Source: a virus (Duplodnaviria; Heunggongvirae; Uroviricota; Caudoviricetes). Taken from it: a DNA stretch of 19,557 nucleotides. Where the stretch lies: IMG/VR virus record IMGVR_UViG_2529293142_000017, positions 1 to 19,557 of that record; one strand, 5' to 3'. Shown in pieces: positions 1 to 19,021 of this stretch (position 1 is its first letter; each line of letters begins with the position of its first letter). A program made the position numbers and the translations under genes. The notes under the pieces are model-generated. The model saw nothing but the letters and a program-made list of their open reading frames with translations, made no database searches and had not been told where the DNA came from.

Positions 1-501
1 TCATTCCAGACGCAGCGAATATGATTGTGTTTTTAACCGTACTGGCGGCAGTTCCTGTTTTTCATGCAGGCGTTCTGCCAGTTCGTCCGGCGTGACCGGG
101 CGGACAATGAAGCGGGTGATGGTCTGAAGCGTTTTAAACACCAGACCACAGCCCGGATCCGTGCACACATAAAAACGCTCGGTGACTTCCTGAGACAGAC
201 GCCGCGATGTTCTTGACAGCGCAAGGCCTTTACATCTCCGACAACAATATCCGGTAACAAGCATTCTTTTCGGGCGTTTCATACTGCCGGAGGCTGACGT
301 CAGTGAATCGCGGTATCTCTGTTTGCCTGAAATGTATTCCATTCCTGAATCTTTACTGTCAGAGAAAAAGCTTTCACTCGCTTCAAATGTCGCAGAGCAA
401 TAAATATTCCGGCACTGTGCAATCATTATCTTGGTGCCATCGTCCATGAAATGTGCGCGGCGGGTGTGAGCAACATGTCCACACGACGGGCAGTAAATCA
501 T
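1..501 (-). CDS. delta: Ogr/Delta-family zinc-finger late-gene transcriptional activator (tandem two-domain P4 Delta type)
   Basis: 166-aa ORF with stop at 1-3. Two Cys4 modules (CPSCGH...CRNIYC and CCRRC...CTDPGC), the duplicated Ogr arrangement of satellite P4 Delta. Start overlaps the sid stop (ATGA) and the gene follows sid as in the P4 late operon. Confidence 0.88.
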   Translation of the reverse strand: MIYCPSCGHVAHTRRAHFMDDGTKIMIAQCRNIYCSATFEASESFFSDSKDSGMEYISGKQRYRDSLTSASGSMKRPKRMLVTGYCCRRCKGLALSRTSRRLSQEVTERFYVCTDPGCGLVFKTLQTITRFIVRPVTPDELAERLHEKQELPPVRLKTQSYSLRLE

Positions 502-1231
502 GACAGCAGTCCTCTGGCCTTAAGCTCTGCTCCCTGCTGGTCTATTTTGTCCTGCCACACCTTGCGCTGTGCCGGTGTGCCTGCCACCTCATAATCCATG
601 TGCGGGAGTGTTGCCGCTGACAGTCCGGTCAGCCGGAGAACCGGCTCACCGGTGAGGCTGATTTGCATCTGTTTTATTTTCTGTTCCAGCGATGATTTCA
701 CCTGCTGCATGACAGCCTTTTCCGGTGCGACGTAGCCCTGATGGCCGGTGGTGTTGGCGAGCGGATTTTCCTGTACCAGAATGCTCAGATGCATTGCCCG
801 GACAAGCGCCTCACAGGTTTCATTCAGGGCGTGTTCCAGCTCATGCTCTGCATACAGACTCAGCAGGTGATGATGTGCCTTCCGGTAGGCGGTGGCCGTG
901 CTGTCACACGCCCCTTTCAGGCGTTCACGTTCAAAATTCAGCACCACGGCCAGATTGTCATATTCCTGTACCAGCTCCCGGCGTGCCACGCGCTCAATGT
1001 GGCGCTGTTTCAGCTCGTCGCTCAGGACACCACCGGCTGCACGAAAGGCTGTGCGCCAGTCATCAGCGTCATTTCCGTCGGCCTGCGCCAGCGCATTTTT
1101 TCCTGCTCTGCCCGTTCAATGGCCTTGACGGTCTCATCCATCAGTCGGGCGTTCTCAAGGTGGGCGGCTCTGGCCTTTTCCAGTTGTGCCAGTGCGGGTT
1201 GCAGATATTCAGGGATGGTGTTGTCAGACAT
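498..1231 (-). pseudogene. sid: sid-like capsid size-determination gene interrupted by a single-base frameshift in a homopolymer
   Basis: N-terminal reading frame starts at ATG 1231 (MSDNTIPEYLQPALAQLEKARAAHLENARLMDET...) behind a GAGGAG RBS and stops at 1022. The C-terminal frame (498-989 in the ORF track, ...ARRELVQEYDNLAVVLNFERERLKG...) stays open upstream to the same point. The two frames meet at a T6 run (1096-1101); one extra base would give one continuous 244-aa ORF. Confidence 0.8.
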
Positions 1232-1265
1232 TTTCCGGCTCCTCGTCACTTCAGGTTAAGAAAAT

Positions 1266-1321
1266 TGTGACGTACACCGGACAACAACACGACGCATTGC
1301 AGATGTGCCAGTCCTGACACA
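1266..1321 (-). promoter_or_regulatory. Candidate Delta/Ogr-responsive late promoter for sid, with two TGT-N12-ACA dyads
   Basis: TGT-N12-ACA at 1304-1321 and again at 1266-1283. With transcription leftward into sid, the dyad centres sit about 55 and 18 bp upstream of a start near 1257, ahead of the GAGGAG RBS. P2/P4 late promoters are known to carry this dyad near -55. Confidence 0.45.
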
Positions 1322-1400
1322 GGAGACTCATCCTCAGACCGGCAAGCCAGGAAAAGGTCGCAGGAAAAACCGGCTTACTGTTTGTTTTTTTATATTTTAC

Positions 1401-1513
1401 TGTTCACCTCTGTTCACCATAAGAAAAAAGATAAGTAATACAGTAAGTTAAAGGGTGAACAATCGCAGTAATGACTGTTCACCGTCTGTTCACCACTGTT
1501 CACCCGTTCATGG
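1401..1513. repeat. Cluster of 6-7 TGTTCACC iterons (alpha-protein-type origin iterons)
   Basis: TGTTCACC at 1401, 1411, 1477, 1487 and 1497, inverted GGTGAACA at 1454, degenerate GTTCATGG at 1506, followed by an AT-rich stretch (1515-1600). Same octamer as in the repeats downstream of alpha, about 4.8 kb away. Confidence 0.65.
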
Positions 1514-1662
1514 ACTTTTTGTGCTGTTTATTACTTTTTATTTTTATTAATTAACTGAAATAAATAAGAAAAAACAATTTGTATTTCACTATAATTTTTT
1601 CCAGCTCCTTCCAGAGCGTTTTAAAGCTATCTGGCGCTGATGTGCAAAAAACACACAGCCAT

Positions 1663-1680
1663 TGTAAGGCTGCCGGAACA
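1663..1680 (+). promoter_or_regulatory. Candidate rightward Delta/Ogr-type late promoter dyad upstream of vis
   Basis: TGT-N12-ACA (TGTAAGGCTGCCGGAACA) centred about 110 bp upstream of the vis start codon, divergent from the sid promoter dyads. Confidence 0.35.
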
Positions 1681-1782
1681 AATCCCCCCTGTTGCGTCTG
1701 CCAAAAATATTCACAAAATAAAGCGCTACCCGAAGCCGGACGGACTTATCCGGTGCTGTATGGACATTAACGAGGTAGCCCG

Positions 1783-2049
1783 ATGCAAGCTGTTTTTTCT
1801 TCCCCGTCTCCTGCCCCTGTGACGCCACTGATGCCGCTGCCGGACATCACGCAGGAGCGTTTTTTACGTCTGCCGGAAGTGATGCACCTGTGCGGCCTGT
1901 CACGCTCGACCATCTATGAACTCATCCGTAAGGGGGAATTTCCGCCGCAGGTGAGTCTTGGCGGTAAAAATGTGGCCTGGCTGCACTCTGAAATCACCGC
2001 ATGGATGGCCGGGCGCATTGCCGGACGCAAACGGGGGTACGACGCATGA
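1783..2049 (+). CDS. vis: AlpA/Vis-family helix-turn-helix regulator (88 aa)
   Basis: GAGG RBS 7 nt before ATG 1783. The [28 protein letters not shown] segment is the AlpA/Vis-type HTH. Size and position (first gene rightward of the divergent late promoters) match P4 vis. Confidence 0.8.
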
Positions 2050-2084
2050 TGATGCCCGCTCTGCAAAAAGTCCCTTTTTCTGGC

Positions 2085-2114
2085 TTGCCTTTTTCCGGCA
2101 TTTGCGGATATAGT
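2085..2114 (+). promoter_or_regulatory. Candidate sigma70 promoter (TTGCCT-N17/18-TATAGT) at the head of a structured leader
   Basis: Hexamers at 2085-2090 and 2108-2114, immediately followed by a perfect 7-bp hairpin (2121-2140). Position corresponds to the early leftward promoter and immunity region of P4-type elements. Confidence 0.3.
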
Positions 2115-2177
2115 TTTTCTGCTGCCGCAAAATCGGCAGCCGGGCGTGGAAACCCGAGCAATTCACAGGCGACATAT

Positions 2178-2199
2178 GACGCGCCATGCGTCTTTTTTT
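2178..2199 (+). terminator. Small intrinsic-terminator-like hairpin within the leader
   Basis: GACGC-GCCAT-GCGTC stem-loop followed by T7 (2193-2199), about 70 nt downstream of the candidate promoter. Confidence 0.35.
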
Positions 2200-2447
2200 G
2201 TGTCGCAATCAACGCCACAGAGCGCCAGATTATGGTGTGGTGTGTGGTCAGTCGTGCAGATGGCATTCCGTGCATCCTGCCCGCGTCCGCTCATTATGCC
2301 GCAGAGTCAATGGTAGCTCAGGCGGGGCAGCCTCCGGGCTGGCCGGTATCCTGTGAAGCCGGTATTTCCACCCCCGTCTGGGCTATCGCCATCGAGCGTG
2401 GAAACTCCGGCGATAGCGTTATTTGCTATTCACAGGAGGCTGCCATC

Positions 2448-2645
2448 ATGGCTACAACCCTTACCCCCTCACACCCTGAATTTGTCTTTGTGTTTGCGGC
2501 TGTCCGTCGCGCAGACCGTCATCCCCGTATCTGCATGCTTCGCACCGTCGCCGGTGATGAACGCAGTGCCCGCCGTTCCCTTGTCCGTGACTATGTGCTC
2601 TCCCTTGCTGCCCGTCTGCCGGTGGTGGAGGTGTCCCGTGCGTAA
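2448..2645 (+). CDS. Hypothetical small protein (65 aa)
   Basis: AGGAGG RBS (2434-2439) 8 nt before ATG 2448. Its stop overlaps the GTG start of the next gene, consistent with translational coupling. It is the 3' part of the long 2001-2645 open frame. Confidence 0.4.
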
Positions 2646-2925
2646 TAAAAAAGCCCCTCAGACCGTCTCAGCGCGTCATGACGCCCGTGAACACCTCAGC
2701 ATTGAGGCTTACCATAAGCTCAACCGCGCCAGCGCCGTATCCCAGTTTGTTGGGGGTGATTTGATTCACCGTGAACTCTCCGGCCTGCATCAGCTCTACA
2801 TTCCGCATATTTTCAGCTACCTGAATGAAGATATTGATTTTGTGCTGAATGAGCTGAAAGCCAAAGGCCTGTGCCGCGATTTTCTCGCCCAGCAGAAAGA
2901 CCGGGGAGACAGGACGCATGTTTGA
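2638..2925 (+). CDS. Hypothetical small protein (95 aa); candidate epsilon-like derepression protein by position and size only
   Basis: GGAGG RBS (2626-2630) 7 nt before GTG 2638. Lies in the same operon ahead of alpha. No motif recognised. Confidence 0.5.
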
Positions 2926-3331
2926 TTTTCCCCAGCCCGGTGAGATTTACCGTTCTGCCGGTTTTCCCGATGTGGCCGTGGTCGGCATTCTGGAAGACGG
3001 TATTCCGTGGGAAATGCCGTACCGCTGCCCGGACATTGTCTGGAACCCGTACCGCCGTAAATTCAGTATCCTTGTGCGTATCCTCGCTGACGGGCGCACC
3101 ACAGACATCCCGCTGGGGCGTTTTCTGCGGGAATTTACCTGTGACCGTCCTGACCTGTTTAAACGCAGCCCCGTAAACCGGCATGCGGTACTGAAAGAAA
3201 TGGCCGGAGACCCGGAATTACAGAAATGGCGGGAGAAATATCTGGATATTTACCCGCAGGCCCCCTGTTCCGGTCAGCCGGGCGGCACCGGTGGCGCGGG
3301 AATGGCGGGAAATTCCCCGCACGGAGCCTGA
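2918..3331 (+). CDS. Hypothetical protein (137 aa), P4-type left-operon gene
   Basis: GGGGAG RBS about 9 nt before ATG 2918. Start overlaps the previous stop. Codon usage matches the neighbouring GC-rich genes. Confidence 0.55.
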
Positions 3332-3510
3332 CCCGGAAATCACCCCGGATAACAGTTACCGCAATTATCTGTAAATTAAAAAACGACCCCCGAAAAATTA
3401 AATGTGCGTATTCGCGCAGGGATACGCACGTCTTCAGGAGACGCAGATATGCCTTATCAGTTAATGCAACCGGCACGGAATGCAGTCATCTGTCACAGGG
3501 AGGAAAACAA

Positions 3511-3831
3511 ATGAAAACACCCTTACCGCCCGTCTTACGCGCTGCCCTTTACCGTCGCGCTGTCGCCTGTGCCTGGCTGACCGTGTGCGAACGTCAGCAC
3601 CGCTACCCGCATCTCACCCTTGAGTCACTGGAGGCGGCCATCGCCGCTGAGCTGGAAGGCTTTTATCTGCGCCAGCACGGTGAGGAAAAAGGGCGTCAGA
3701 TAGCCTGTGCCCTGCTGGAAGATTTAATGGAATCCGGCCCCCTGAAGGCCGCGCCGTCGCTGTCCTTTCTCGGGCTGGTTGTGATGGATGAACTCTGTGC
3801 CCGTCACATAAAAGCGCCGGTACTGCACTGA
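3511..3831 (+). CDS. Hypothetical protein (106 aa) immediately upstream of alpha
   Basis: AGGGAGG RBS (3497-3503) 7 nt before ATG 3511. Stop lies 14 nt before the alpha start. It is the in-frame 3' part of the 3226-3831 ORF. Confidence 0.6.
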
Positions 3832-3845
3832 AGGAGAACAACACC

Positions 3846-6179
3846 ATGAAAATGAACGTAACCGCCACCGTCAGCCATGCACTCGGCCACTGGCCGCGTA
3901 TCCTCCCGGCGCTGGGGATTCAGGTGCTGAAGAACCGTCATCAGCCCTGTCCGGTCTGTGGCGGGAGTGACCGCTTCCGTTTGGATGACAGGGAGGGGCG
4001 CGGCACCTGGTACTGCAATCAGTGTGGTGCCGGTGACGGCCTGAAACTGGTTGAAAAGGTGTTTGGTGTTTCCCCGTCCGATGCGGCCGCAAAGGTGGCT
4101 GCCGTGACCGGCAGCCTGCCCCCGGCTGACCCGGCAGTGACGGCTGCCGCCGGTGCTGAAACAGACGCTGCCCGGAAGAACGCCGCCGCACTGGCACAAA
4201 CCCTGATGGCGAAAACCCGTCCCGGAACCGGTAACGCCTACCTGACCCGCAAGGGCTTTCCCGGCCGGGAATGCCGGATGCTGACCGGCACACACAGAGC
4301 CGGTGGCGTGAGCTGGCGTGCCGGTGACCTTGTGGTGCCACTGTATGACGACAGCGGCGAACTGGTTAACCTTCAGTTAATCAGTGCTGACGGCCGTAAG
4401 CGCACCCTGAAAGGCGGACAGGTCAGGGGCACCTGTCACACCCTTGAAGGACAGAATCAGGCCGGAAAACGTCTGTGGATAGCGGAGGGATACGCGACCG
4501 CACTTACCGTGCATCACCTGACCGGTGAAACGGTGGTGGTGGCGCTTTCTTCCGTGAATCTCCTTTCTCTGGCCAGCCTTGCCCGGCAGAAGCATCCGGC
4601 CTGTCAGATTGTCCTTGCTGCTGACCGTGACCTCAGCGGTGACGGCCAGAAAAAAGCCGCCGCAGCCGCAGATGCGTGTGAAGGTGTTGTTGCCCTGCCG
4701 CCGGTCTTCGGTGACTGGAATGATGCCTTCACGCAGTACGGCGGGGAAGCCACCCGTAAGGCCATTTATGATGCCATCCGGCCACCGGCTGAAAGCCCGT
4801 TCGACACCATGAGCGAAGCGGAGTTTTCCGCCATGAGTACCAGCGAAAAGGCCATGCGTATCTATGAGCATTACGGCGAGGCGCTCGCGGTCGATGCCAA
4901 CGGCCAGCTTCTGTCCCGCTATGAAAATGGTGTCTGGAAGGTGCTGCCGCCACAGGACTTTGCCCGGGATGTGGCCGGGCTGTTTCAGCGTCTGCGCGCG
5001 CCGTTCTCCTCCGGGAAGGTGGCCTCCGTGGTGGACACCCTGAAGCTGATTATTCCGCAGCAGGAAGCCCCCTCCCGCCGCCTGATTGGCTTTCGTAACG
5101 GCGTGCTCGACACGCAGAACGGCACGTTCCACCCGCACAGTCCGTCACACTGGATGCGCACCCTGTGTGATGTGGATTTCACCCCGCCAGTGGAAGGGGA
5201 AACGCTGGAAACCCACGCCCCCGCGTTCTGGCGCTGGCTTGACCGTGCCGCCGGTGGCCGTGCGGAAAAACGCGACGTGATTCTGGCCGCACTGTTTATG
5301 GTGCTGGCAAACCGCTACGACTGGCAGCTCTTTCTGGAGGTGACCGGTCCCGGCGGCAGCGGCAAAAGTATCATGGCCGAAATAGCCACCCTGCTGGCCG
5401 GGGAGGATAACGCCACATCGGCCACCATTGAGACGCTGGAATCCCCGCGTGAACGTGCCGCGTTAACTGGCTTCTCACTGATACGCCTGCCGGACCAGGA
5501 AAAATGGAGCGGCGACGGTGCCGGACTCAAGGCCATCACCGGCGGCGATGCGGTGTCCGTTGACCCGAAATACCGGGATGCGTACTCCACGCACATCCCG
5601 GCGGTGATTCTGGCCGTGAACAATAACCCGATGCGCTTCACCGACCGCAGCGGCGGCGTGTCACGCCGGCGGGTGATTATTCACTTCCCTGAACAGATAG
5701 CCCCGCAGGAGCGCGACCCGCAGCTTAAGGACAAAATCACCCGCGAGCTGGCGGTCATCGTGCGTCACCTGATGCAGAAATTCAGCGACCCGATGCTCGC
5801 CCGGTCACTGCTTCAGTCCCAGCAAAACTCAGACGAGGCGCTGAACATCAAACGGGATGCCGACCCGACGTTTGATTTTATCGGCTATCTGGAAACCCTG
5901 CCGCAGACCAGCGGCATGTATATGGGGAACGCCAGTATCATCCCGCGCAATTACCGTAAATACCTCTATCACGCCTATCTGGCCTACATGGAGGCAAACG
6001 GCTACCGGAATGTACTCAGTCTGAAAATGTTCGGGCTGGGGCTGCCGGTGATGCTGAAGGAATACGGACTGAATTACGAGAAGCGCCATACCAAACAGGG
6101 GATACAGACCAACCTGACGCTGAAAGAGGAAAGCTACGGCGACTGGCTGCCAAAATGTGACGACCCTGCAACAATCTGA
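3846..6179 (+). CDS. alpha: P4 alpha-type multifunctional replication protein (zinc-binding primase, TOPRIM, P-loop helicase, C-terminal origin-binding region)
   Basis: 777-aa ORF with AAGGAG RBS. N-terminal CPVCGG...CNQCG zinc motif, EGYATALTVH (TOPRIM-like) and Walker A VTGPGGSGKS. Same length as P4 alpha, and flanked downstream by iteron repeats. Confidence 0.95.
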   Translation: MKMNVTATVSHALGHWPRILPALGIQVLKNRHQPCPVCGGSDRFRLDDREGRGTWYCNQCGAGDGLKLVEKVFGVSPSDAAAKVAAVTGSLPPADPAVTAAAGAETDAARKNAAALAQTLMAKTRPGTGNAYLTRKGFPGRECRMLTGTHRAGGVSWRAGDLVVPLYDDSGELVNLQLISADGRKRTLKGGQVRGTCHTLEGQNQAGKRLWIAEGYATALTVHHLTGETVVVALSSVNLLSLASLARQKHPACQIVLAADRDLSGDGQKKAAAAADACEGVVALPPVFGDWNDAFTQYGGEATRKAIYDAIRPPAESPFDTMSEAEFSAMSTSEKAMRIYEHYGEALAVDANGQLLSRYENGVWKVLPPQDFARDVAGLFQRLRAPFSSGKVASVVDTLKLIIPQQEAPSRRLIGFRNGVLDTQNGTFHPHSPSHWMRTLCDVDFTPPVEGETLETHAPAFWRWLDRAAGGRAEKRDVILAALFMVLANRYDWQLFLEVTGPGGSGKSIMAEIATLLAGEDNATSATIETLESPRERAALTGFSLIRLPDQEKWSGDGAGLKAITGGDAVSVDPKYRDAYSTHIPAVILAVNNNPMRFTDRSGGVSRRRVIIHFPEQIAPQERDPQLKDKITRELAVIVRHLMQKFSDPMLARSLLQSQQNSDEALNIKRDADPTFDFIGYLETLPQTSGMYMGNASIIPRNYRKYLYHAYLAYMEANGYRNVLSLKMFGLGLPVMLKEYGLNYEKRHTKQGIQTNLTLKEESYGDWLPKCDDPATI

Positions 6180-6195
6180 CCCTCATGACTCATCT

Positions 6196-6219
6196 GACCG
6201 GCATCTGCCGGTCTTTTTT
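6196..6219 (+). terminator. Rho-independent terminator after alpha
   Basis: GACCGG-CATCTG-CCGGTC hairpin followed by T6, 17 nt after the alpha stop. Confidence 0.6.
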
Positions 6220-6238
6220 ATCCCTGAATTCCCCGAAG

Positions 6239-6536
6239 GTGAACAATCCACTGTTCACCCTTCACCGTGTATTCACCCGTTATCACACTGAAATTAAAAG
6301 AGAAAAACGAAAGGTGAACAGTGTGAACAATCAAATCAAAAAAAACTTTTTTTTCTCCCTGTGTGATTTCAGTACGGGGGATTAATCACCGGTATGAGTC
6401 ACACCGGCAGAATGCCGGAGGTGAAGAATCGAATGTTCACCCTTCACCCATTATTCACCACCTATCATACTGAAATAAAAGGAGAAAAAGAAAGGTGAAC
6501 AGTGTGAACAGTTCTTCCGAAAAAAATTTTTTCTTA
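6239..6536. repeat. Two ~120-bp direct repeats, each with several TGTTCACC/GGTGAACA iterons (crr-like cis replication region)
   Basis: Copy A is about 6239-6358 and copy B about 6420-6536, roughly 60 bp apart and about 85 percent identical by eye. Each holds GGTGAACA, TGTTCACC, TTCACC and TATTCACC variants plus GGTGAACAGTGTGAACA, and each ends in an A-run/T-run tract (A8-C-T8 and A7-T6). Confidence 0.7.
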
Positions 6537-6651
6537 CTTTTAATTGTGTAAAAAACAGGCGATGCGCGCAGTGTGTATAGATATGTGTATAGTTATATTT
6601 TTTGAATATAATAATATCTTATAAATCAATGCTTTAACTTGCAATATTCAT

Positions 6652-6669
6652 TCCTATTATCGGCACCAT
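6652..6669 (+). repeat. Attachment-site core copy (left): 18 bp identical to 19004-19021, with the form of a tRNA 3' end
   Basis: TCCTATTATCGGCACCAT reads as T-stem 3' half, acceptor 3' half, discriminator A and CCA. No D arm or anticodon arm lies upstream, so it is a partial tRNA copy. It sits about 115 bp after the crr-like repeats. Confidence 0.7.
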
Positions 6670-7274
6670 CAAGAAAATCAATAACTTAGCTTAACTTCTC
6701 TAAGAAATTGTATCTTCTGTTATCACTTACAAACGCCTATACGTTGTTATGGGCTTTGGTAGTGTAACACGTATGGGCGAGTAGTTCCCAAGCTCAACCT
6801 CGTAACAAGTTCCTTTGAAGCTGGAAGACGTGCCACCGTCTCTAAACCTTCTACCAAAACTCTTAGCAAGATGTTCCACACCTGGCGCGGTGTCCAATGA
6901 TGCTACACGTCGTGAGACGTTGCAGAGGATAAACAGGCTAAATGATGGGAAGAGTTTTAAGTGCAATAGTGGATTAAAGCCCACCTCTTCAAAACCTAAC
7001 TTGATCGGGAAAGAATCAAGCTCTAGCACGGTTTCGTCCACCGGAGTACAACGGGTGCCTGATAAGAGAAGAACTGCTAAGACTTCATAGCTTTTGTGAA
7101 AAAGCCCTTTTTAGTGGATACGCCTACGGCGCTTATTTTTTGGTATAACCATCAAAGGCGCTTTATGGCTTCTATTGTCTTGAAAATGTATCTTTACTTG
7201 TATTGTGTTTTATGCGTAGTCTCCCTGTGTAGTATGTAACTTGTTAATTTTCATATGAATACAGAGGCAACACG

Positions 7275-7433
7275 ATGAAAAACATTGCAGCTATAAAACG
7301 TAATAACCGCAAGATTCACGCTCGTAAGTTCCTGTCTACGCCAGAAGGAAAAGCCTGGTTAGAGCGTAAACAGAGAGAGAACGAAGAAAGAAAACTCCTT
7401 AGTGAGTTGAAATGGCTTAGAGAGGATTTCTGA
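7275..7433 (+). CDS. Possible small basic protein (52 aa), not in the supplied ORF track
   Basis: AGAGG 7 nt before ATG 7275. Encodes MKNIAAIKRNNRKIHARKFLSTPEGKAWLERKQRENEERKLLSELKWLREDF, a charged helical peptide. Too short for compositional support. Confidence 0.3.
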   Translation: MKNIAAIKRNNRKIHARKFLSTPEGKAWLERKQRENEERKLLSELKWLREDF

Positions 7434-7700
7434 AAATCTCCAGAACGCAACAGGACGCATTCTAACGCTGTTTTCATTGCTTGATATAGGGATGTATAGG
7501 TGGTGTGTGTTTAATGCGTCTGTGAGCTTGTTTTGTGCCTTATTTTGCATTTTCATAATGCAGAAGAGAACACGGAAAGCCTTAAAATTAATTATTTGGG
7601 TATTTAAGGCTATTTTCAGGTTATTTAAGGGTATTAAACTTGATTTAATTGGTTGAAATATAAACAGATAGTTCTGTATCTTATTGATTTATAAGGTTAT

Positions 7701-7780
7701 TTTTAAATAAAGGTAAATAAAAAATAAATAGCCATAAATAGCTATAAATACATCTAAATACCTATAAATCCCTTTGAATA
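7701..7780. repeat. Eight tandem 10-bp units ending in ATAAATA (helically phased A/T repeat)
   Basis: ttttaaataa, aggtaaataa, aaaataaata, gccataaata, gctataaata, catctaaata, cctataaatc, cctttgaata. The exact 10-bp period predicts intrinsically bent DNA. Confidence 0.6.
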
Positions 7781-7884
7781 CATATGAAGCCCTTCCCTTA
7801 TGGCTAGATTGCGAGAGGTGCTTAACGCGATTTTCAGCGCCCCCCGATCTGGAAAATCCAGAATCCCCAAATATCAAGGAGGCA

Positions 7885-8424
7885 TTACGCCTCCTCTTCT
7901 TCCTTCTTAATTCGCTGTACCGTCGAAGGAGCAACATTAAAGATCTCGGCGGTTTTACGCACTGACAGGCCATCAGAAAGGGCTTTCTTTATACCTTCTC
8001 TATCTACTGCTTTTCCATTACCACGCTTTGTAGGATTGACGGCTTGCGCTTCTCGTTTACGTTCTAACATCAGTTCACGTTCACACGTTGCCACTGCCGA
8101 CAACATAGTAAGCATCATTTTTCCCATCGCGCTTGTAATGTCAGCAATGATCCCTTCTTTGTGAAATCGAACAATTACACCACGATTATTAAGCTCTTCC
8201 ACTAAAGCAAGAATGTCTAAGGTGTTACGCCCTAAACGGTCGAGAGAGTGCACGTGTAAGGTGTCGCCTTCTCTCAGATAGGATAAACACGCCTGCAATC
8301 CTGGACGGTTAGTGTCTTTACCTGACAGCTTATCTTCAAAGACTTTATCAAGCGTTACTCCTGCAAGCTGGCGATCAGTGTTCTGATCTACAGTGCTCAC
8401 ACGCTTATAACCGATATTGCTCAT
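7885..8424 (-). CDS. Serine recombinase of the resolvase/DNA-invertase family (179 aa)
   Basis: N-terminal GYKRVSTVDQNTDRQ catalytic-serine motif, internal SLDRLGRN, and C-terminal HTH (TAEIFNVAPSTVQRIKK). AAGAGG RBS before ATG at 8424. Confidence 0.9.
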   Translation of the reverse strand: MSNIGYKRVSTVDQNTDRQLAGVTLDKVFEDKLSGKDTNRPGLQACLSYLREGDTLHVHSLDRLGRNTLDILALVEELNNRGVIVRFHKEGIIADITSAMGKMMLTMLSAVATCERELMLERKREAQAVNPTKRGNGKAVDREGIKKALSDGLSVRKTAEIFNVAPSTVQRIKKEEEEA

Positions 8425-8439
8425 AAAATCCTCTTAATG

Positions 8440-8560
8440 TATCGATTTGGCACTACTTCAATGCAAATGAGTATATCGTATTCATTTGGTCTGTTTCAAG
8501 CCTTATAGGTACGGAATATTACACGATTTAGCTGTATTCATTTGGTATGCCTAATGGATA
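8440..8560. promoter_or_regulatory. Candidate recombinase target or regulatory region with TTTGG-type repeats
   Basis: Direct repeats GTATTCATTTGGT at 8478 and 8535, and imperfect palindromes ATTTGGCA-N-TGCAAAT (8446-8470) and ATTTGGCA-N25-TGCCAAAT (8621-8661), immediately upstream of the recombinase start, where res or inversion sites usually lie. Confidence 0.25.
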
Positions 8561-8994
8561 CACAGGGGAATAGATTAAATGGTGTTCTGTTTATACAGGT
8601 TTATTTGTTAGATCAACAATTTGGCATTTCTAAACAGATGTTTGAACGTTGCCAAATGTCTTGACAACACAAGAAAAGGGCTTGCTATGCCACGCATTAC
8701 ACGAAATAAGGCTGTAAAAACAAAATAAATTTTAAAATTTGCACAAACGAGAAAACTCATTCGACAAATAATAGATTAATTTTTAGCCAACAATTTCTGA
8801 TGGTGCTCTGTAAGCCGCATTACACAAGGCTTTGCGAAAGTGATGTAAAAGTGAAGAAAGTTAACATTGCTCTTTTAAGCTACTTTTTCATTGAATTTTT
8901 AGTATGGAATTACACAGGAATAAGTTAGGGATATTCTATGATTTACACAGGGAATATAGGGGGATTATGGCACACACATAGAAAGGCATTACAC
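8518..8994 (+). repeat. Dispersed direct repeats of ATTACACAGG(A)ATA-type motif, at least 6 copies
   Basis: ATTACAC at 8518, 8696, 8819, 8909 and 8988, TTTACAC at 8942, plus ATACACAGGGGAATAG at 8558. Inverted copies (GTGTAATT) at 9476, 9530 and 9581. AATTACAC-N12-GTGTAATT forms a perfect inverted pair at 9510-9537. Confidence 0.5.
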
Positions 8995-9256
8995 AGAGTG
9001 AGTGCTATGTGACAAATGGATGTAACGAGAGGTTACATTCAGCTATCTGAAATGCTCTTTGTAAGAAAGTTGGTAGTAACGGTAGGTCATAGTGAGCTAG
9101 GGGGTAGGTCACTGTGAACTACAATAAGACTATTAATAAAACTATATTAGATTATTAATTAGATCATAATAATAATATTCTTTATATCTATATATATATG
9201 ATCTTTTGCCTTCCGGCGTTAGCTTCACTCTCTGGCAAGCAACCTTACTCCGCTAC

Positions 9257-9352
9257 CTTTCGGGCTTCGTGGCTGGCCCGTTCCGCTCACACCGAAAGCA
9301 AAGCGTTACTTTCTTCGTGTAACTATCGTTGGCGGTAACGCCCACGAAGAAA
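9257..9352. other. GC-richer island of interleaved inverted repeats inside AT-rich non-coding DNA
   Basis: CTTTCGG (9257) pairs with CCGAAAG (9292); GCGTTAC (9303) with GTAACGC (9335); TTTCTTCGTG (9310) with CACGAAGAAA (9343). The last two pairs cross each other, giving a pseudoknot-like or alternative-hairpin topology. Confidence 0.4.
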
Positions 9353-9631
9353 TACTATTGCGCTGTGCGCAGTAAGAGTAATCACCTAACCAATCATACT
9401 GATTGCTTACGTGTTAACTCTCTCTAACTCTTAATTACCCTCCTACATTTAATAACTCTGTTATTCTCTGTAGTTGTGTAATTACTCGAAGAGAGAGCGG
9501 CTAAAGCTCAATTACACTCTGCTTTCCTCGTGTAATTTCACTAAGCCTCAATACAATTTCACTTCCTACATTCTGTAGTCGTGTAATTGTTTTCGGTGGA
9601 AAAGCCAGAGGCGACACCGAAAGAGAATTCT

Positions 9632-9695
9632 GATCTTATTAATCTTATCTATCTTAGTTAATCTTCTTACTTATCTTACTTAATCTTTATCTACT
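9632..9695. repeat. Phased ATCTTA repeats (about 7 copies, 9-10 bp period) starting with a GATC 13-mer-like element
   Basis: GATCTTATTAATC at 9632-9644 resembles the oriC-type 13-mer class (GATCT + AT-rich), followed by aatcttatct, atcttagtta, atcttcttac, ttatcttact, taatctttat. Confidence 0.45.
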
Positions 9696-10223
9696 TTATT
9701 ATTAATAATAGCTTTATAAGCTCTCTGTAGCTCTCTGACGCAAGAAACAGCATTCAGGAAGGGAATCACCTTAGAAAAGTGTTCTTTGCGTCATAATGTG
9801 TTTTATGAAGGATTCAGAGGTGTTTCATAACAGGAATGTATAGAGGATACGTTAGGTAATTAAAAATAAGGGGTCTAAATGCTTCTCTAACAGCATTAAG
9901 CAGGGTAGGGAATGGAAACGCATTGCCTACATATATAATCTCACTACAGAGCTTTACAGAGCGTTTTATAAAGTGACTCTCTATCTTATATCTACCATCA
10001 CCTTTTTATATACCTAACAAATACCAAATAAGCCCCTTAAATAAGCCTCTGGCGAGCTAAACAGCCATTACATAAGGGAATGTATTGCTTTTATCAAAAC
10101 TTCGTTAGAACGCGTTTTAGAGCGTTTTAGACAATAATGAAGAATAGCACTACACAGAAGAGCACGAATTGCTAAGAAAAAATGTAAGTGCATGAAAAAG
10201 ATCAGATTTTTTGTGAAAAGGTA

Positions 10224-10252
10224 TTGACAAATGTTTCTTTATATGTAATAAT
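10224..10252 (+). promoter_or_regulatory. Candidate sigma70 promoter for the plus-strand small-gene operon
   Basis: TTGACA (10224-10229), 16-17 bp spacer, TAATAAT (10246-10252), about 110 bp upstream of the first gene. Confidence 0.5.
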
Positions 10253-10361
10253 AGGTATTAGAGGGACAGAAAAACATTCTTCTCTAAATAATCAAAATCA
10301 ATGCACTTTGAAGCCGTCAGGCTTGCAAGGTGTTTTTCTTTTAACTGAATAAGGAGTTTTT

Positions 10362-10550
10362 ATGAAATGGTTTACACCGAAACACGTCGTCGAGGCATTT
10401 AAAAAAGGTGAGCTAACACGCCACCAGGTAGTAATGAACCGTAATATGGCAAGGAGTCGAGGTTATCCAGAGCGAGCAGCTTGCTTCAATGAAGCACTCA
10501 AGATTATTGATGAACTAAGAAAAAATGAAAAAGAATCTGAAACAGAGTAA
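10362..10550 (+). CDS. Hypothetical small protein (62 aa)
   Basis: AAGGAG RBS 5 nt before ATG. First gene after the promoter. Basic and helical. Confidence 0.5.
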   Translation: MKWFTPKHVVEAFKKGELTRHQVVMNRNMARSRGYPERAACFNEALKIIDELRKNEKESETE

Positions 10551-10569
10551 AGAATAGAAGGAGAAAACT

Positions 10570-10740
10570 ATGAGCGAAACTACAGAAAAGAAAAGACAAC
10601 CACGCACTTGCTTTCATATTCCTGATGAAGTATTTCAGGTGTTGTTTAAAGAAGCCAGAAGTAGACGTATCACTGTTACAGATTACATTCTTGATATGTT
10701 GAAAAGAGAGGCTGAAACACTCTCAAATAAAAGCAAGTGA
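10570..10740 (+). CDS. Probable ribbon-helix-helix (Arc/MetJ/CopG-like) DNA-binding protein (56 aa), not in the ORF track
   Basis: AAGGAG RBS 7 nt before ATG 10570. RTCFHIPDEVFQVLFKEARSRRITVTDYILDMLKRE fits a beta-strand plus two helices. Confidence 0.5.
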   Translation: MSETTEKKRQPRTCFHIPDEVFQVLFKEARSRRITVTDYILDMLKREAETLSNKSK

Positions 10741-10793
10741 TTTTTATCACCATAGTAGCGCCGTAGAGCGTGATTACATCAAGGAGATTTTTA

Positions 10794-11483
10794 ATGATTA
10801 ACCAACTAACTTTTACAAAACACTATGACACGTTTGATAATGTATCAAAGATTTATTCTGATAAATTCCCTCAAGGAAAAGATTTAGATCTATTACATAT
10901 TGTGCTTTATTTTCGATTCCTTAGTTATCAGGAAAACAACCTTAATTGTTATGAAAGTCACGAAACATTAGCTAAGATTTTTAAGTCTTCAGCGTCAACA
11001 ATTAAACGTAAGATAAACGATCTTAAAGAGATGGGATTATTAGAAACATCCCCACATCCTGATCCGTATATTTCATCTTTGATTTACAATGCTCTCCCTC
11101 TCACAGATGCACATATTACTCCCCCAGGAGAATCATCACTCTCTGATCTTTCTGAGGCAGCAGAAGCACAGGAACAACCTAAAGGCCATAAACAGCCTTC
11201 TTTTGATGTTCTTGATGATTGGGATGCGCCTTTGCCGTGGGAGACGGAAGAAACACCTGTTTCATCAAGTGAAAAGGTAGCTAATGATAATGAGGAGGAT
11301 GTGTTAGAGAATTTTGCCTCTCTTATCTGCCAGCAGAAACACACCAGAACAGGAGGGGCATCATTTATAGAATTTGCAAATTCACTAGCTTATAGACACG
11401 GGCTAAAACGACCAAATGGTATTGAGGCATATTTTTCTAAGAATTACCCAAATGTGTATGATGACTTTGATATTCCATTTTAA
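10794..11483 (+). CDS. Winged-helix DNA-binding protein with acidic C-terminal region (229 aa); candidate replication initiator or regulator
   Basis: AAGGAG RBS 7 nt before ATG 10794 (the track's upstream GTG start would cover the RBS). HTH-like segment ESHETLAKIFKSSASTIKRKINDLKEMGLLE. Acidic Ser/Glu-rich C-terminal half. Confidence 0.7.
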   Translation: MINQLTFTKHYDTFDNVSKIYSDKFPQGKDLDLLHIVLYFRFLSYQENNLNCYESHETLAKIFKSSASTIKRKINDLKEMGLLETSPHPDPYISSLIYNALPLTDAHITPPGESSLSDLSEAAEAQEQPKGHKQPSFDVLDDWDAPLPWETEETPVSSSEKVANDNEEDVLENFASLICQQKHTRTGGASFIEFANSLAYRHGLKRPNGIEAYFSKNYPNVYDDFDIPF

Positions 11484-11494
11484 TAAGGAGGGTT

Positions 11495-11773
11495 ATGATT
11501 CAATATTTAGTAAAAAATCAAGTAGACAGAATTCAGTGTAATGACACAGGAAAACGCATCTACGAAACACTTGCTTACCTCTATAAAGGAAAGCCAACAC
11601 CGCTAAAATATAGCGATGTGTTACATCGAGCAGGGTGCTCTGAAGATGGTTTAAAATTCTGGCTGAAACAGCTATCAAATTTCGGTGTTATAGAGATTAA
11701 AGAATTATCTTTCTCTACATTCAATCTCAAAAGACTGGATAAAGAAATAGTATTCATCTATTCCACTCTCTAA
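11495..11773 (+). CDS. Hypothetical protein (92 aa), possible small HTH protein
   Basis: AGGAGGG RBS directly upstream, 11 nt after the previous stop. The YSDVLHRAGCSEDGLKFWLKQLSNFGVIEI segment looks HTH-like. Confidence 0.6.
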   Translation: MIQYLVKNQVDRIQCNDTGKRIYETLAYLYKGKPTPLKYSDVLHRAGCSEDGLKFWLKQLSNFGVIEIKELSFSTFNLKRLDKEIVFIYSTL

Positions 11774-11905
11774 AATCTCTCTATGTAATTAAAATATAAA
11801 AGGAAAACATTATTATGATAGTAGCTATGTATTGGTTATTGTTCTTTCTCACGTTAGAAACATATTTCGGGGTGTTTTCCTTTAAAAGAAAAGGAAAAGT
11901 AAATA

Positions 11906-12313
11906 ATGGCAAAAAGAAAAAACAACGTTGTTAAGAAAATCGGTGATTCAGCTTCTCTTCTAAGTAAACCTAAATCTATTCTAAGACGTAAAGACTTTAA
12001 AGAGCTAGTTACGCTCTCCAAGCAAAATAGCGCCCCTGGCGAATGGAAAACAGAGATCATAGAACATTCTCCCTCTGTGCCTTGTGGAGATGAATTTAAC
12101 GCCTTACAAGAAATCTTATCTTCAACACCTGGCGTATTCTGGAAACCTAGAAAAAGAAAAGAGTATATTGTTGATAGCTCTGATTTACGCAAATACCAGA
12201 TTTTAGGATTTGAAGACTATAACCACTACGTTGGTTATCTCGCCACCAATGGCCTAAATAATTTAGTTCCTGAATTCCATTTAGATAATGATGATCACTA
12301 TGGAGACTTTTAA
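11906..12313 (+). CDS. Hypothetical protein (135 aa)
   Basis: AAAGGAAAAG RBS region before ATG. Basic N-terminus (MAKRKNNVVKK). Same strand and codon style as neighbours. Confidence 0.6.
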   Translation: MAKRKNNVVKKIGDSASLLSKPKSILRRKDFKELVTLSKQNSAPGEWKTEIIEHSPSVPCGDEFNALQEILSSTPGVFWKPRKRKEYIVDSSDLRKYQILGFEDYNHYVGYLATNGLNNLVPEFHLDNDDHYGDF

Positions 12314-12314
12314 T

Positions 12315-12653
12315 ATGAACAAAAACACGTATGATACAATTTACTCACTAATTAATTATTATGAGGATGATTACCTCCTGCCTTTAAACCGCGCTGAACT
12401 TGAAGCATATAAAGAAAATACACCATCGGCACTAAATGAGGCGTTTAAACACTGGGATCTAGCTGTGAATGCCTTGGAGCACCTCTTTAAGCGTGTAGAG
12501 ATGCTCTGTAAGCGCGAAAACGCATATCTGACAGCGGATCAGATATGGGAGCTATCAAACTGGATAGAAGATATTGAATCTGATGTTCGCTATGTGGGAG
12601 ATGGCCTTATCGAACTCGCACAACGCTTAGGCGCTGCTATCACAGAAGAATAA
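12315..12653 (+). CDS. Hypothetical protein (112 aa)
   Basis: GGAG 9 nt before ATG 12315, which lies 1 nt after the previous stop. The track's earlier start (12288) overlaps the upstream gene and has no RBS. Confidence 0.6.
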   Translation: MNKNTYDTIYSLINYYEDDYLLPLNRAELEAYKENTPSALNEAFKHWDLAVNALEHLFKRVEMLCKRENAYLTADQIWELSNWIEDIESDVRYVGDGLIELAQRLGAAITEE

Positions 12654-12682
12654 AAAAAGCAACAAAAAAGTTGTAAAATATC

Positions 12683-12711
12683 TTGACATTTCATATATTG
12701 TATGTTAATAT
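12683..12711 (+). promoter_or_regulatory. Near-consensus sigma70 promoter (TTGACA-N17-TAATAT)
   Basis: Hexamers at 12683-12688 and 12706-12711 in the intergenic gap after the 112-aa gene. Confidence 0.55.
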
Positions 12712-12909
12712 AATTATATGGGGTGATTATTTTTCCTTTATTGGTTCGATATTAAAAATTCTTCTTGTCGTTAAAGGGGAGTAAAATCTCCGCTCCCCGC
12801 TTCTCCTCCTTAAGTAAATACTGTGTCATTATTACCTCTTTTTTCCTTTGTTATGCATACATCTTGGAGTATGCATAACATAGGGTAATTACATAGGTAC
12901 AAGTTAATA

Positions 12910-12941
12910 AAAGGCGGCTCTAAATGCTGCCTTTTATTTTG
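12910..12941 (+). terminator. Intrinsic-terminator-like hairpin ending a ~200-nt ORF-free leader
   Basis: AAAGGCGGC-TCTAAAT-GCTGCCTTT (9-bp stem with one G-T) followed by TATTTTG. Lies between the strong promoter and the next gene start at 13003. Confidence 0.5.
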
Positions 12942-13002
12942 CCCGTTATGCAACTTAAAAGTTGTATTTCTTACTTTAAACAAGGTAACAAGGTTTATAT
13001 AA

Positions 13003-13215
13003 ATGTTGTTTTTAAACGATAAAGAGCAAATCATCAAGTATAAAGATGAAATGCTGAAAATTAATCCACAAATTACCGAAATGGTAGCTAAATACGCTGG
13101 GTGTTCTGTCGAGGAAGTAGAAAGATGTGTTGAAAAATATTTTTCTCCTTCTTCTCCGTCTACACCTTCCCTTAATGAATTAATCAAATTAAAAGCTAAG
13201 GAGATTACTAAATGA
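13003..13215 (+). CDS. Hypothetical small protein (70 aa)
   Basis: Weak RBS (AAGG about 12 nt upstream). Stop overlaps the next start (ATGA). Confidence 0.45.
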   Translation: MLFLNDKEQIIKYKDEMLKINPQITEMVAKYAGCSVEEVERCVEKYFSPSSPSTPSLNELIKLKAKEITK

Positions 13216-13574
13216 TTATTGATTTAGACACTCTATTTCCAGTTCGAAAGACTTTCACAGATATTGTAAGTTATTGTACTGATCCGTTTGCCTCTGTAGA
13301 AAGCAAGGTTTTTGCTTCTCTTCCTGCTGATGTTGAATGCGGAGACTTGATCACCAGCACTGGCGCTAAATATGAATCAGGAGATGATATCTATGTTGTT
13401 ATGAGTGAATTTTTAACGGCTGGAGAAAATAAGCCTGTAGATGTTTTACGTAGCAATGCTGGCCTTGTCTGCATCAAATCTGATGCGCTGAATGCTGTAA
13501 GTGAAGCAGCAAAAACAGCATTAATTAAAAAAGGCTTCCAGCTTGAAGGGTTCCATTCTGTTTTCACTTCTTAA
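13212..13574 (+). CDS. Hypothetical protein (120 aa)
   Basis: AAGGAG RBS 8 nt before ATG, overlapping the previous stop. Acidic protein. Confidence 0.6.
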   Translation: MIIDLDTLFPVRKTFTDIVSYCTDPFASVESKVFASLPADVECGDLITSTGAKYESGDDIYVVMSEFLTAGENKPVDVLRSNAGLVCIKSDALNAVSEAAKTALIKKGFQLEGFHSVFTS

Positions 13575-13592
13575 TAAAAGGAATAATAATAA

Positions 13593-14621
13593 ATGATTTT
13601 AGGTAATGATTACGTTGATTTAGCTCCTCTGTTCTCTGCGCATAGCACTAGAAACTATCTGCTTTCTACTCTTGATTTTACGGATTCTGTAGGGGTTACA
13701 TCTCATAAAGTAGCTGTTTCCCAGCTTGTCGAAAGCAACGAATCTCTGTTCAACAAAGAAACCTCTCGTTTCTCTTCTGAACACAACGTTACTAAGCGTG
13801 AACAAGGCAAAGAATATCTTATCGAAATCCCGTACTTTTTAAGGCAAGACCTGATCAAACCGCAGGACGTGCAAGGCAAGCGTAAGCCTGGCACTGATTT
13901 TCAGGAAACACTCACTGATATCTATGCTGACTATGTTGCTAAACACCACGTAGCGTATCAGCGCACTAAAGAAAGCGTATTGGCTGCTTCTTTGTTTAGT
14001 GGTCGCACCTATACCCCGAAAACTGACGATGTTCTTATCGAGTGGGGCAAGCTGTTTAACGTATCAGCTATGAAAGCCACTGTGAACGCTTCCAGCACTG
14101 ACACCACGAAGATTTTTAAAGAATTTGATCAGATTGCTACGAATATTATCGACAGAGCACAAAGCCAGGCGGCTGCTGTAGAAAGAATTGTTGTTTTCTG
14201 TAAACCTGACGCCTTCTCTGCAATTCGATTCTCTGCTGGTATGGCAAACGCATTCCAGTATGTAAGCCCACTGGAAGAGGGGAATGTTGTGTATCAGCGT
14301 CGTGACCTGCTGCCAGGGGTGACAGCGTTCACTATCCCAGGAACTAACATTGATGTTGTTAAACTGGTAGATCCGCTACACCTTGCACATATGACCGCAG
14401 ACGCTGTAGCTGTTCCGAAGTTTGCTAAAGGCTCTAATGTATATCAGAACATCTACGGGGCTGCTTCCAGCACCTTTGAACTGATTAATGCCGCTCCTGC
14501 TGAGGTGTACAGCTATAGCTATGAATCTTCTCGTGGTGATGCTGTTAACGTTGTTACAGAGAATAGCCAGATGGTGGTAAACCACGGCGTTGGCTTCTCT
14601 GTTCAAATCACTGTTAAATAA
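13593..14621 (+). CDS. Hypothetical protein (342 aa) with virion-structural-like composition; candidate major structural protein
   Basis: RBS-like AAAGGAA before ATG. Rich in Ala/Ser/Thr/Val/Asn with no Cys-rich or nucleotide-binding motifs. Followed by a strong terminator, as is common after highly expressed structural genes. No family recognised from sequence. Confidence 0.8.
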   Translation: MILGNDYVDLAPLFSAHSTRNYLLSTLDFTDSVGVTSHKVAVSQLVESNESLFNKETSRFSSEHNVTKREQGKEYLIEIPYFLRQDLIKPQDVQGKRKPGTDFQETLTDIYADYVAKHHVAYQRTKESVLAASLFSGRTYTPKTDDVLIEWGKLFNVSAMKATVNASSTDTTKIFKEFDQIATNIIDRAQSQAAAVERIVVFCKPDAFSAIRFSAGMANAFQYVSPLEEGNVVYQRRDLLPGVTAFTIPGTNIDVVKLVDPLHLAHMTADAVAVPKFAKGSNVYQNIYGAASSTFELINAAPAEVYSYSYESSRGDAVNVVTENSQMVVNHGVGFSVQITVK

Positions 14622-14640
14622 CATTTTAACGTGTAATAGA

Positions 14641-14673
14641 GGCGTGGCGTGTATTCACGCTTCGCCTTTTTTT
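14641..14673 (+). terminator. Rho-independent terminator
   Basis: Nested GC stem (GGCG...GCGTG-TATT-CACGC...CGCC) followed by T7, 20 nt after the 342-aa gene stop. Confidence 0.65.
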
Positions 14674-14707
14674 ATTTATTTTTTAAATTTTGAGAGGTGA
14701 TTAAAAT

Positions 14708-14911
14708 ATGGAAGTGATTCTGAAATCAAAAAATGGTGTACACGTACATTTAGATGCTAATGATTCTAGAGGATTGTTAAATCTGAAATATCTATGTTCT
14801 CTCCTAGATGTTCCATATGAAGGAGTAAAAGCCCGTATGTTCAGACTAAACGAGAGTATTGATCAAGCTCTACACCATTTCTTAAGTAAAGAAGGTGGTA
14901 AAAATGATTAA
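14708..14911 (+). CDS. Hypothetical small protein (67 aa)
   Basis: GAGAGGTGA RBS 7 nt before ATG. First gene after the terminator. Confidence 0.5.
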   Translation: MEVILKSKNGVHVHLDANDSRGLLNLKYLCSLLDVPYEGVKARMFRLNESIDQALHHFLSKEGGKND

Positions 14912-14925
14912 TAAGGGGATTTTAA

Positions 14926-16755: not shown

Positions 16756-16786
16756 TTCCCGCCATAACATTACAAGGAAAATTATT

Positions 16787-17500
16787 ATGGCAACGGCGGG
16801 AATTTTAACCATACGATCAGCAAATACTCCAGAACAACACGTTCAGGCTGTTTACAAAGCAGAACAAGATATAAACTCTACAAAAAACGAAAATAGCAAA
16901 GCTAATAAAACAAAAGGAGAGAACGGATTTGCTATTGTTACCAGTGGACTGGCATCTTCTGGCAATGACGTTTATGAAAATTATATGGCACTGGCCTTTG
17001 ACAGTGTTGACGACGTGAACGTGAGACGTTCGGCAGATGTTACAAGCTACCCCGTAGAAAATGGTGCTACTGTGTCTGATCACGTTCAAATTAAAAACAA
17101 TAAATTTTCTCTTAAAGGAAGGATCACTGAAACACCGATTAAAAGCGATCCTGGCTTGTTAAAGAGTGCAGGGGTGAACGGGAACAGAAGATCATTAGCT
17201 ATCGACTACCTGAATCAGATTATGGACAGTAGACAGCCTTTTCTTCTTGTTACAGAAAATAAAACTTTTGAGAACGTTGTTTTAACAGGCATCGAATACA
17301 CAGAAGAGGCAAGCGAATCCCTGGTATTTGATCTTAGCTTTGAGCAGATCAGGCTCGTTTCGTATGGCACTGTAAACACTGTAGCTCTCAAAACACAGCC
17401 ATCTAAGAACATTGGGGCTAATATGAAAAAACGTGTTAACACTGAAAAATCAAGTAGTGAAGGTGAAGACACTATTACTCCTGCCTTTAAACAGGAATAG
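16787..17500 (+). CDS. Hypothetical protein (237 aa), structural-like, co-transcribed with the 609-aa gene
   Basis: AAGGA RBS about 9 nt before ATG, 31 nt after the previous stop. Beta-rich composition (VTSYPVENGATVSDHVQIKNNKFSLKGRITETPI). Confidence 0.8.
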   Translation: MATAGILTIRSANTPEQHVQAVYKAEQDINSTKNENSKANKTKGENGFAIVTSGLASSGNDVYENYMALAFDSVDDVNVRRSADVTSYPVENGATVSDHVQIKNNKFSLKGRITETPIKSDPGLLKSAGVNGNRRSLAIDYLNQIMDSRQPFLLVTENKTFENVVLTGIEYTEEASESLVFDLSFEQIRLVSYGTVNTVALKTQPSKNIGANMKKRVNTEKSSSEGEDTITPAFKQE

Positions 17501-17542
17501 CTGTAAATGCCTCTAAAACGCTCTGTAACGATGTAATTATAA

Positions 17543-17573
17543 AAGAGGCTACCAATCTATGTTGAAGCCTCTT
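17543..17573. terminator. Hairpin between convergent genes (possible bidirectional terminator)
   Basis: AAGAGGC-N17-GCCTCTT with flanking A/T, between the 237-aa gene stop (17500) and the integrase stop (17582). Confidence 0.45.
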
Positions 17574-17581
17574 TATTGCGT

Positions 17582-18946: not shown

Positions 18947-19003
18947 TCAATTAGTAATGGTCGTAGGTGATGGCATTAACACGAGATTAATCGAGTGTTT
19001 TAC

Positions 19004-19021
19004 TCCTATTATCGGCACCAT
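19004..19021 (+). repeat. Attachment-site core copy (right): 18 bp identical to 6652-6669
   Basis: TCCTATTATCGGCACCAT, then AAAATCAA shared with the left copy after a 1-3 nt difference. A 10-mer GGTCGTAGGT resembling a tRNA T-arm lies 35 bp upstream (18959-18968). Confidence 0.7.

Follow-up and report, generated by a model that had tools for sequence, protein, structure and literature searches.

A sid gene interrupted at an A tract in a P4-like satellite prophage of Escherichia coli

The window, by which we mean the whole stretch of 19,557 nucleotides analysed here (IMG/VR record IMGVR_UViG_2529293142_000017), opens with a segment at positions 1-6650 that was identified from its sequence as the right-hand half of a P4-like satellite, integrated as a prophage into the E. 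coli chromosome at thrW, a tRNA-Thr gene; positions 1-6532 aligned to positions 4291-10814 of P4 with 97.5% identity. The window starts at the stop codon of delta, and psu, cos and int fall outside it; relatives located at thrW carry psu and an integrase. On the minus strand, delta (1..501) encodes an intact Ogr/Delta zinc-finger activator of 166 aa, and its ATG overlaps the stop codon of sid (ATGA, 498-501). Beyond the former coding region of sid (498..1231, minus strand) lie an alpA-like gene (1783-2049), epsilon (ending at 2925), a shortened homologue of ORF151 (2918-3331) and an intact alpha of 777 aa (3846-6179). Rfam models located isrK at 2121-2198 (74.9 bits) and the C4/CI antisense RNA at 2306-2393 (76.6 bits), and the satellite part also holds ori, the immunity region, an ORF106 homologue and crr. 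The gene content (delta, a broken sid, an alpA-like gene, epsilon and alpha) is that of a P4-like satellite, as are the CI/C4 antisense immunity RNA and the integration next to a tRNA gene, marked by a repeat of the thrW 3' end at 6651-6669. Among the P4-like relatives L014, L022, L023, L026, L003 and L004, the cargo of the hotspot between int and psu was observed to vary, with examples including a Gabija-like pair (OLD-family ATPase and UvrD helicase), a reverse transcriptase, an AIPR protein and a HAD hydrolase; such variation fits the defence hotspot published for P4-like satellites.

The thrW repeat, a 19-nt direct repeat (CTCCTATTATCGGCACCAT) corresponding to the 3' end of the tRNA gene, was found at both 6651-6669 and 19003-19021, which indicates a tandem array at a single attachment site, the satellite followed by a second integrative island. 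In the genomes of other E. coli strains the repeat adjoins proA, and either a P4-like satellite or a phage-like island of ~12.9 kb is integrated there; the tandem junction of the window was absent among the top matches in complete genomes. The island of the window (6670-19002) is phage-like and spans 12.35 kb, and at least 224 complete E. coli genomes contain it at a coverage of 80% or higher. Its genes code for a DNA invertase (7885-8424, minus strand), a replication-initiator-like protein (10770-11483), an E-type major capsid protein (13593-14621), a tape-measure-like protein (14926-16755), a Dit-like protein (16787-17500) and a tyrosine integrase (17582-18859, minus strand). Because these are too few structural genes for a phage, the island may itself be a satellite or a remnant. 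Its segment at 8425-10770 (~2.3 kb) contains no ORF of 90 aa or longer and includes AT-rich short tandem repeats at 9633-9706; at 9080, strain 20KM2762 has one more copy of a 22-nt unit (GGTAGGTCATAGTGAGCTAGGG) than the window.

The sid gene is encoded on the minus strand, with an ATG at 1231-1229 preceded at a distance of 7 nt by a GAGGAG Shine-Dalgarno motif (1239..1244, minus strand) as read from the sequence, and its frame is lost after a run of six A residues (A6) at 1101-1096, seen as T6 on the plus strand. A direct read, the list of open reading frames and a straight translation from 1231 all agreed on this point. At the run the sequence reads CAG GAA AAA ATG CGC, and the translation from 1231 (MSDNTIPEY...AEQEK) continues into 24 unrelated residues. 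The N-terminal frame (1022..1231, minus strand) thus comprises 69 aa, of which 45 are native Sid residues and 24 are out of frame, and it closes at TGA 1024-1022 with the remaining 199 codons out of frame. The C-terminal frame, which holds Sid residues 46-244, is open from 1115 to 498 (minus strand; stop at 498-500) and is closed upstream by TGA 1118-1116. Since the two frames close at 1022-1024 and 1116-1118, the A run falls within the sole interval (1025-1115) in which both are open. The earliest start codon in the C-terminal frame is GTG 989, which lacks a good ribosome-binding site and would give 163 aa, equivalent to Sid residues 82-244.

The alignment of the sid region with P4 (NC_001609) contained a single indel in 783 columns, located at the run, with seven A residues (A7) in P4 and six in the window. 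The run (1096..1101, minus strand) is the only homopolymer of at least five bases in sid, and it is A7 in P4 and in almost all relatives. The whole former coding region, with a length of 733 nt versus 734 before the stop, is 97-99% identical to P4 sid. When one A was added, the repaired gene encoded 244 aa, which aligned with P4 Sid (PDB 7JW1 chain E) over residues 1-244 with 242 identities (E = 5e-156). The break is a deterministic feature of the sequence and not a statistical one. In the window no uninterrupted ORF of ~244 codons was found that would hold the stem, the knot and the C-terminal helix in one chain; the repaired product is similar to P4 Sid over its full length, and the gene occupies the expected place in the late operon, where it precedes delta and its stop codon overlaps the delta start. 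None of the NCBIfam profiles recognises Sid or its fragments, so the identification rests on P4 and PDB 7JW1. By sequence and synteny, then, the gene is sid, and for want of an intact ORF we classify it as a sid pseudogene of a P4-like satellite. The sequence-only reading had named the gene sid, placed its break where the frames from 1231 and of 498-989 abut at the T6 run (1096-1101), attributed the break to that homopolymer, and stated that one more A would give a single 244-aa ORF; each of these statements was borne out by the alignment to P4, the match to 7JW1, the position of the sole indel and the repaired translation.

That reading had also called for comparison with other copies of the satellite, and the comparison revealed A7 in almost all of them and A6 only rarely. 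Among 5,426 complete RefSeq E. coli genomes, the best matches listed for the 851-nt sid query all spanned 852 nt, including those in 48 genomes at 99% identity or higher; because 852 nt were spanned by an 851-nt query, these copies have A7, and none of the 48 genomes within 1% of the window's sid region (0/48) had A6. A 48-nt megablast query specific to A6, built with 21-nt flanks such that A7 copies share at most 27 exact bases with it and only A6 copies seed, returned exactly one genome, E. coli 08-00022 (CP013662), among ~1,150 sid copies in the same genomes. A pattern scan of IMG/VR accepting runs of 6-8 yielded 70 A7 copies and one A6 copy (n = 71), the latter on the contig L070 described below. 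In a collection of 15 billion proteins, the exact 69-aa frameshift product was present on ~21-26 other contigs from many unrelated sequencing runs, the 163-aa C-terminal ORF (called 'glycoprotein 3' in many assemblies) on 116-147 contigs, and the repaired, intact Sid on at least 1,000 contigs.

The A6 copies were distributed over seven or more sid haplotypes, all of them known with A7 as well, and over three integration sites (selC, thrW and ssrA) with different cargo genes, which identifies the sid A tract as a recurrent hotspot; one copy, at L018, has A8. Spread of a single ancient A6 allele by recombination was rejected, given that at least seven haplotypes each shared with A7 fit recurrence better. 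The A7 tract is a slippage hotspot for real mutation and for sequencing error alike.

For the window, we consider that A6 is probably a genuine loss-of-function deletion, making the element a natural sid-null satellite. The closest relative of the window's satellite, L070 (IMGVR_UViG_2529293142_000034; 99.56% identity over 6,179 nt, 13 substitutions), also has A6, as do otherwise clean assemblies, and the 69-aa product recurs on the other contigs counted above. The ten island genes are all of full length in the window, and so are delta, alpA, the Icd-like gene, epsilon, ORF106 and alpha (777 aa), which argues against an artefact. It is nonetheless a real possibility, if one we would not bet on, that sid is intact in the strain, with A7, and that one base of the homopolymer was dropped from the consensus. 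The A7 tract is the longest run in sid and a classic site of under-calling, and A6 is almost absent from quality-filtered complete genomes (1/~1,150, and 0/48 among those whose sid region differs from the window's by no more than 1%). Three further one-base differences in run length (3261-3265, 3373 and 18926-18930) are private to the window in its 19.5 kb, as compared with ~5 private substitutions, and so indel-rich a private pattern is the product expected of homopolymer-error-prone sequencing. These three differences, one of which breaks the ORF151 homologue, are what keep an assembly artefact in contention.

The first two of the private differences lie in or at ORF151. The homologue in the window (2918-3331) is cut from 151 to 137 aa by a frameshift at 3261-3265, where the run is C5 (GGCCCCCTG) and relatives show only four bases (CCCC, ACCC or ACAC); an extra A occurs at 3373, at the ORF151 stop (TGTAAATT versus TGTAATT in relatives). 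Neither C5 nor the extra A occurred in L070 or in any of the 1,178 copies of the complete RefSeq E. coli genomes. The third is an intergenic T run at ~18926-18930 that is T5 in the window and T6 in three relatives, making the window the outlier; at a second intergenic T run (14667-14673), the window and two relatives have T7 and strain 20KM2762, here the outlier, has T8. Compared with an island copy 99.8% identical to it, the window differs by one substitution, two single-base run-length changes and one 22-nt repeat unit, a balance that again favours sequencing error. So does the absence of exact matches to the window's alpha (777 aa) and ORF151 (137 aa) products from the 15-billion-protein collection. 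Against this, a load of two private indels in 6.6 kb is equalled or exceeded by ~19% of A7 loci. A per-position scan under-counts window-private indels, because gap placement inside runs differs between alignments, and the run-normalised count misses the extra A at 3373, a difference that rests on local BLAST views and on the RefSeq and L070 comparison.

The other A6 loci point in both directions. In the shared 6.6 kb, other rare indels occurred at 0.49 per kb in A6 loci versus 0.14 per kb in A7 loci, so that many of the A6 calls elsewhere are probably artefacts. At L007, L015-L017 and L020, A6 was found alongside many other homopolymer frameshifts, which lends weight to an error in the window as well; in L007, L015, L017 and L020, homopolymer deletions and fragmented genes abound, and their A6 is probably an error. 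Conversely, nine of the 20 other A6 loci were free of any other rare indel in the shared region, including L014 (6.6 kb aligned), L022 (5.8 kb), L006 (6.3 kb) and L026, the locus of CP013662 (6.5 kb), which indicates that genuine A6 alleles exist too. In L070, the region matching window positions 1569-1966 contains 11 rare indels of one or two bases within 400 nt, which disrupt the alpA-like gene; the psu ORF of L070 is 149 aa. The pattern suggests that the L070 assembly is locally poor, and the cluster makes L070 weaker as an independent witness. No complete RefSeq genome closer than 98.2% to the whole P4-like part, and hence no high-quality sister genome, was found.

Two further proposals would give the tract a function, and neither fared well. 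The first, which we judge very unlikely, holds that the A7 tract acts as a natural low-frequency OFF switch that yields viable sid-null satellites packaged as multimers in P2-sized capsids, with the satellite and the island, in tandem between identical thrW att cores, excising jointly as a unit of ~24 kb, the size of a P4 dimer. Loss of Sid would let the two elements move together, because a unit of ~24 kb fits only the large capsid. None of the tests in this analysis supported joint packaging of satellite and island, and the other A6 elements L014 and L022 lack a tandem island.

The second, which we regard as slightly more improbable still, is that the tract is a regulated or reversible switch, either through phase-variable ON and OFF lengths or through synthesis of full-length Sid from A6 by -1 ribosomal or transcriptional slippage. 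In its favour, changes in the tract recur on many haplotypes, the A8 variant exists at L018, and the sequence itself shows that tRNA-Lys slipping by -1 on GAA AAA A would restore precisely the wild-type protein. The allele frequencies, though, led us to reject phase variation, which the sequence-only reading had listed as an alternative and which was left unsupported: OFF lengths are very rare, at 1/~1,150 (~0.1%) in good genomes and 1/71 (1.4%) in IMG/VR, and the conserved state is the in-frame A7. At a contingency locus, ON and OFF would both be common among related strains; here they were not (1/~1,150, 0/48 within 1%, 1/71). Independent, recurrent changes in length, the other mark of such loci, were observed (A6 on at least seven haplotypes, A8 once), a part of them being sequencing error. 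Programmed frameshifting was likewise rejected. Seven A residues are short for efficient slippage, no X XXY YYZ heptamer occurs in register (the zero frame reads GAA AAA AUG), and the 92 nt downstream contain no stable structure and fold no better than shuffled sequences (z = -0.36). The heptamer, the stimulatory structure and a conserved shifted arrangement that together define programmed -1 frameshifting are thus all absent, A7 in frame being the norm. Sid is moreover required stoichiometrically, at 60 copies per procapsid (PMC7552001), for which leakage of ~1% should not suffice.

If A6 is taken as a genuine deletion, the reading we prefer, its probable consequences can be outlined from the published structure of Sid and from classical genetics. 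Residues 11-137 of Sid make up a coiled-coil stem 100 angstroms long, with tips that join as trimers on the threefold axes; the dimer knot comprises residues 139-189, gpN is bound by helix alpha6 (219-224), and sixty copies assemble into the cage of each procapsid (PMC7552001). Classical sid mutants give P2-sized capsids with multimeric P4 DNA, according to a summary within bioRxiv 10.64898/2026.03.30.715334. The one A would have been lost from the A7 tract that encodes Glu44-Lys45-Asn46, most likely by replication slippage at the gene's only long homopolymer. The 69-aa product of normal initiation would contain only part of helix alpha1, and a product restarted at GTG 989 (residues 82-244) would keep the dimer knot and the gpN-binding helix while missing half of the trimerising coiled-coil stem; judged from the structure, neither fragment should be able to form the dodecahedral cage by which helper capsid assembly is turned from T=7 to T=4. 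By analogy with classical P4 sid mutants, any packaging of the element upon helper induction would be of multimers into P2-sized capsids, and interference with the helper would be reduced. A sid-null element would not necessarily be immobile, although size-based exclusion of the helper genome would be lost. The expectation of the sequence-only reading, that loss of the external scaffold would alter packaging, agrees with this literature on structure and mutants alike. Delta would also be affected: the stop codon of sid and the ATG of delta overlap (ATGA, 498-501) and termination now occurs 520 nt upstream, so that delta loses its translational coupling to sid, and early termination in sid may be polar, lowering the expression of delta and psu.

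A real deletion would thus make this a natural sid-null P4-like satellite that fails to shrink capsids on helper infection, hinders a P2-like helper less, and spreads only as multimers in large heads. Such a consequence is small and predictable and concerns one prophage. Perhaps of wider use is the recognition that the single A7 run is the weak spot of sid, open both to true slippage and to homopolymer sequencing error. Split calls of 'glycoprotein 3' or Sid in draft and long-read assemblies should not be taken as biology without support from reads, and satellite censuses in which sid presence is scored from predicted proteins can mis-class such copies.

Set against known systems, the gene of the window is closest to P4 sid itself. 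The repaired protein has the 244 aa of P4 Sid (NP_042042.1; PDB 7JW1) and differs from it only by N4H and K36T, and the gene lies, as in P4, between ori/Psid and delta with the same ATGA overlap with delta; it differs in that the frame is broken at codon 46. With laboratory P4 sid mutants (the classical mutants and delta-sid phasmids), it would share the loss of Sid function and the expected P2-sized capsids with multimers, as outlined in bioRxiv 10.64898/2026.03.30.715334, whereas the window presents a probable natural, chromosomal one-base homopolymer deletion. Homopolymer contingency loci resemble it in having a coding mononucleotide run in which a change of length switches the frame, and changes in the sid run are recurrent; unlike them, the sid run is short (seven), OFF is ~1,000-fold rarer than ON in good genomes, and reversible switching is unsupported. 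The alpA pseudogenes of P4-like satellites described by Moura de Sousa and Rocha (PMC8628076) likewise reflect a core gene inactivated by frameshifts more than once. Loss of alpA is common, accounting for 56% of variants missing one gene, 98% of which keep the pseudogene, and is conserved within clades (PMC8628076); sid A6, by contrast, is rare (~0.1-1.4%). A further parallel is CP48_RS23345 of E. coli 08-00022 (NZ_CP013662.1), in which A7 has likewise become A6 in the sid of a P4-like prophage, annotated by PGAP as 'glycoprotein 3, frameshifted'. Its sid haplotype (18 differences), integration site (selC) and cargo (AIPR) all differ from those of the window, and it therefore represents an independent event. 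With the identical allele already annotated in RefSeq and sid-null behaviour classical, an A6 deletion in sid is a known kind of event, ordinary and not new biology.
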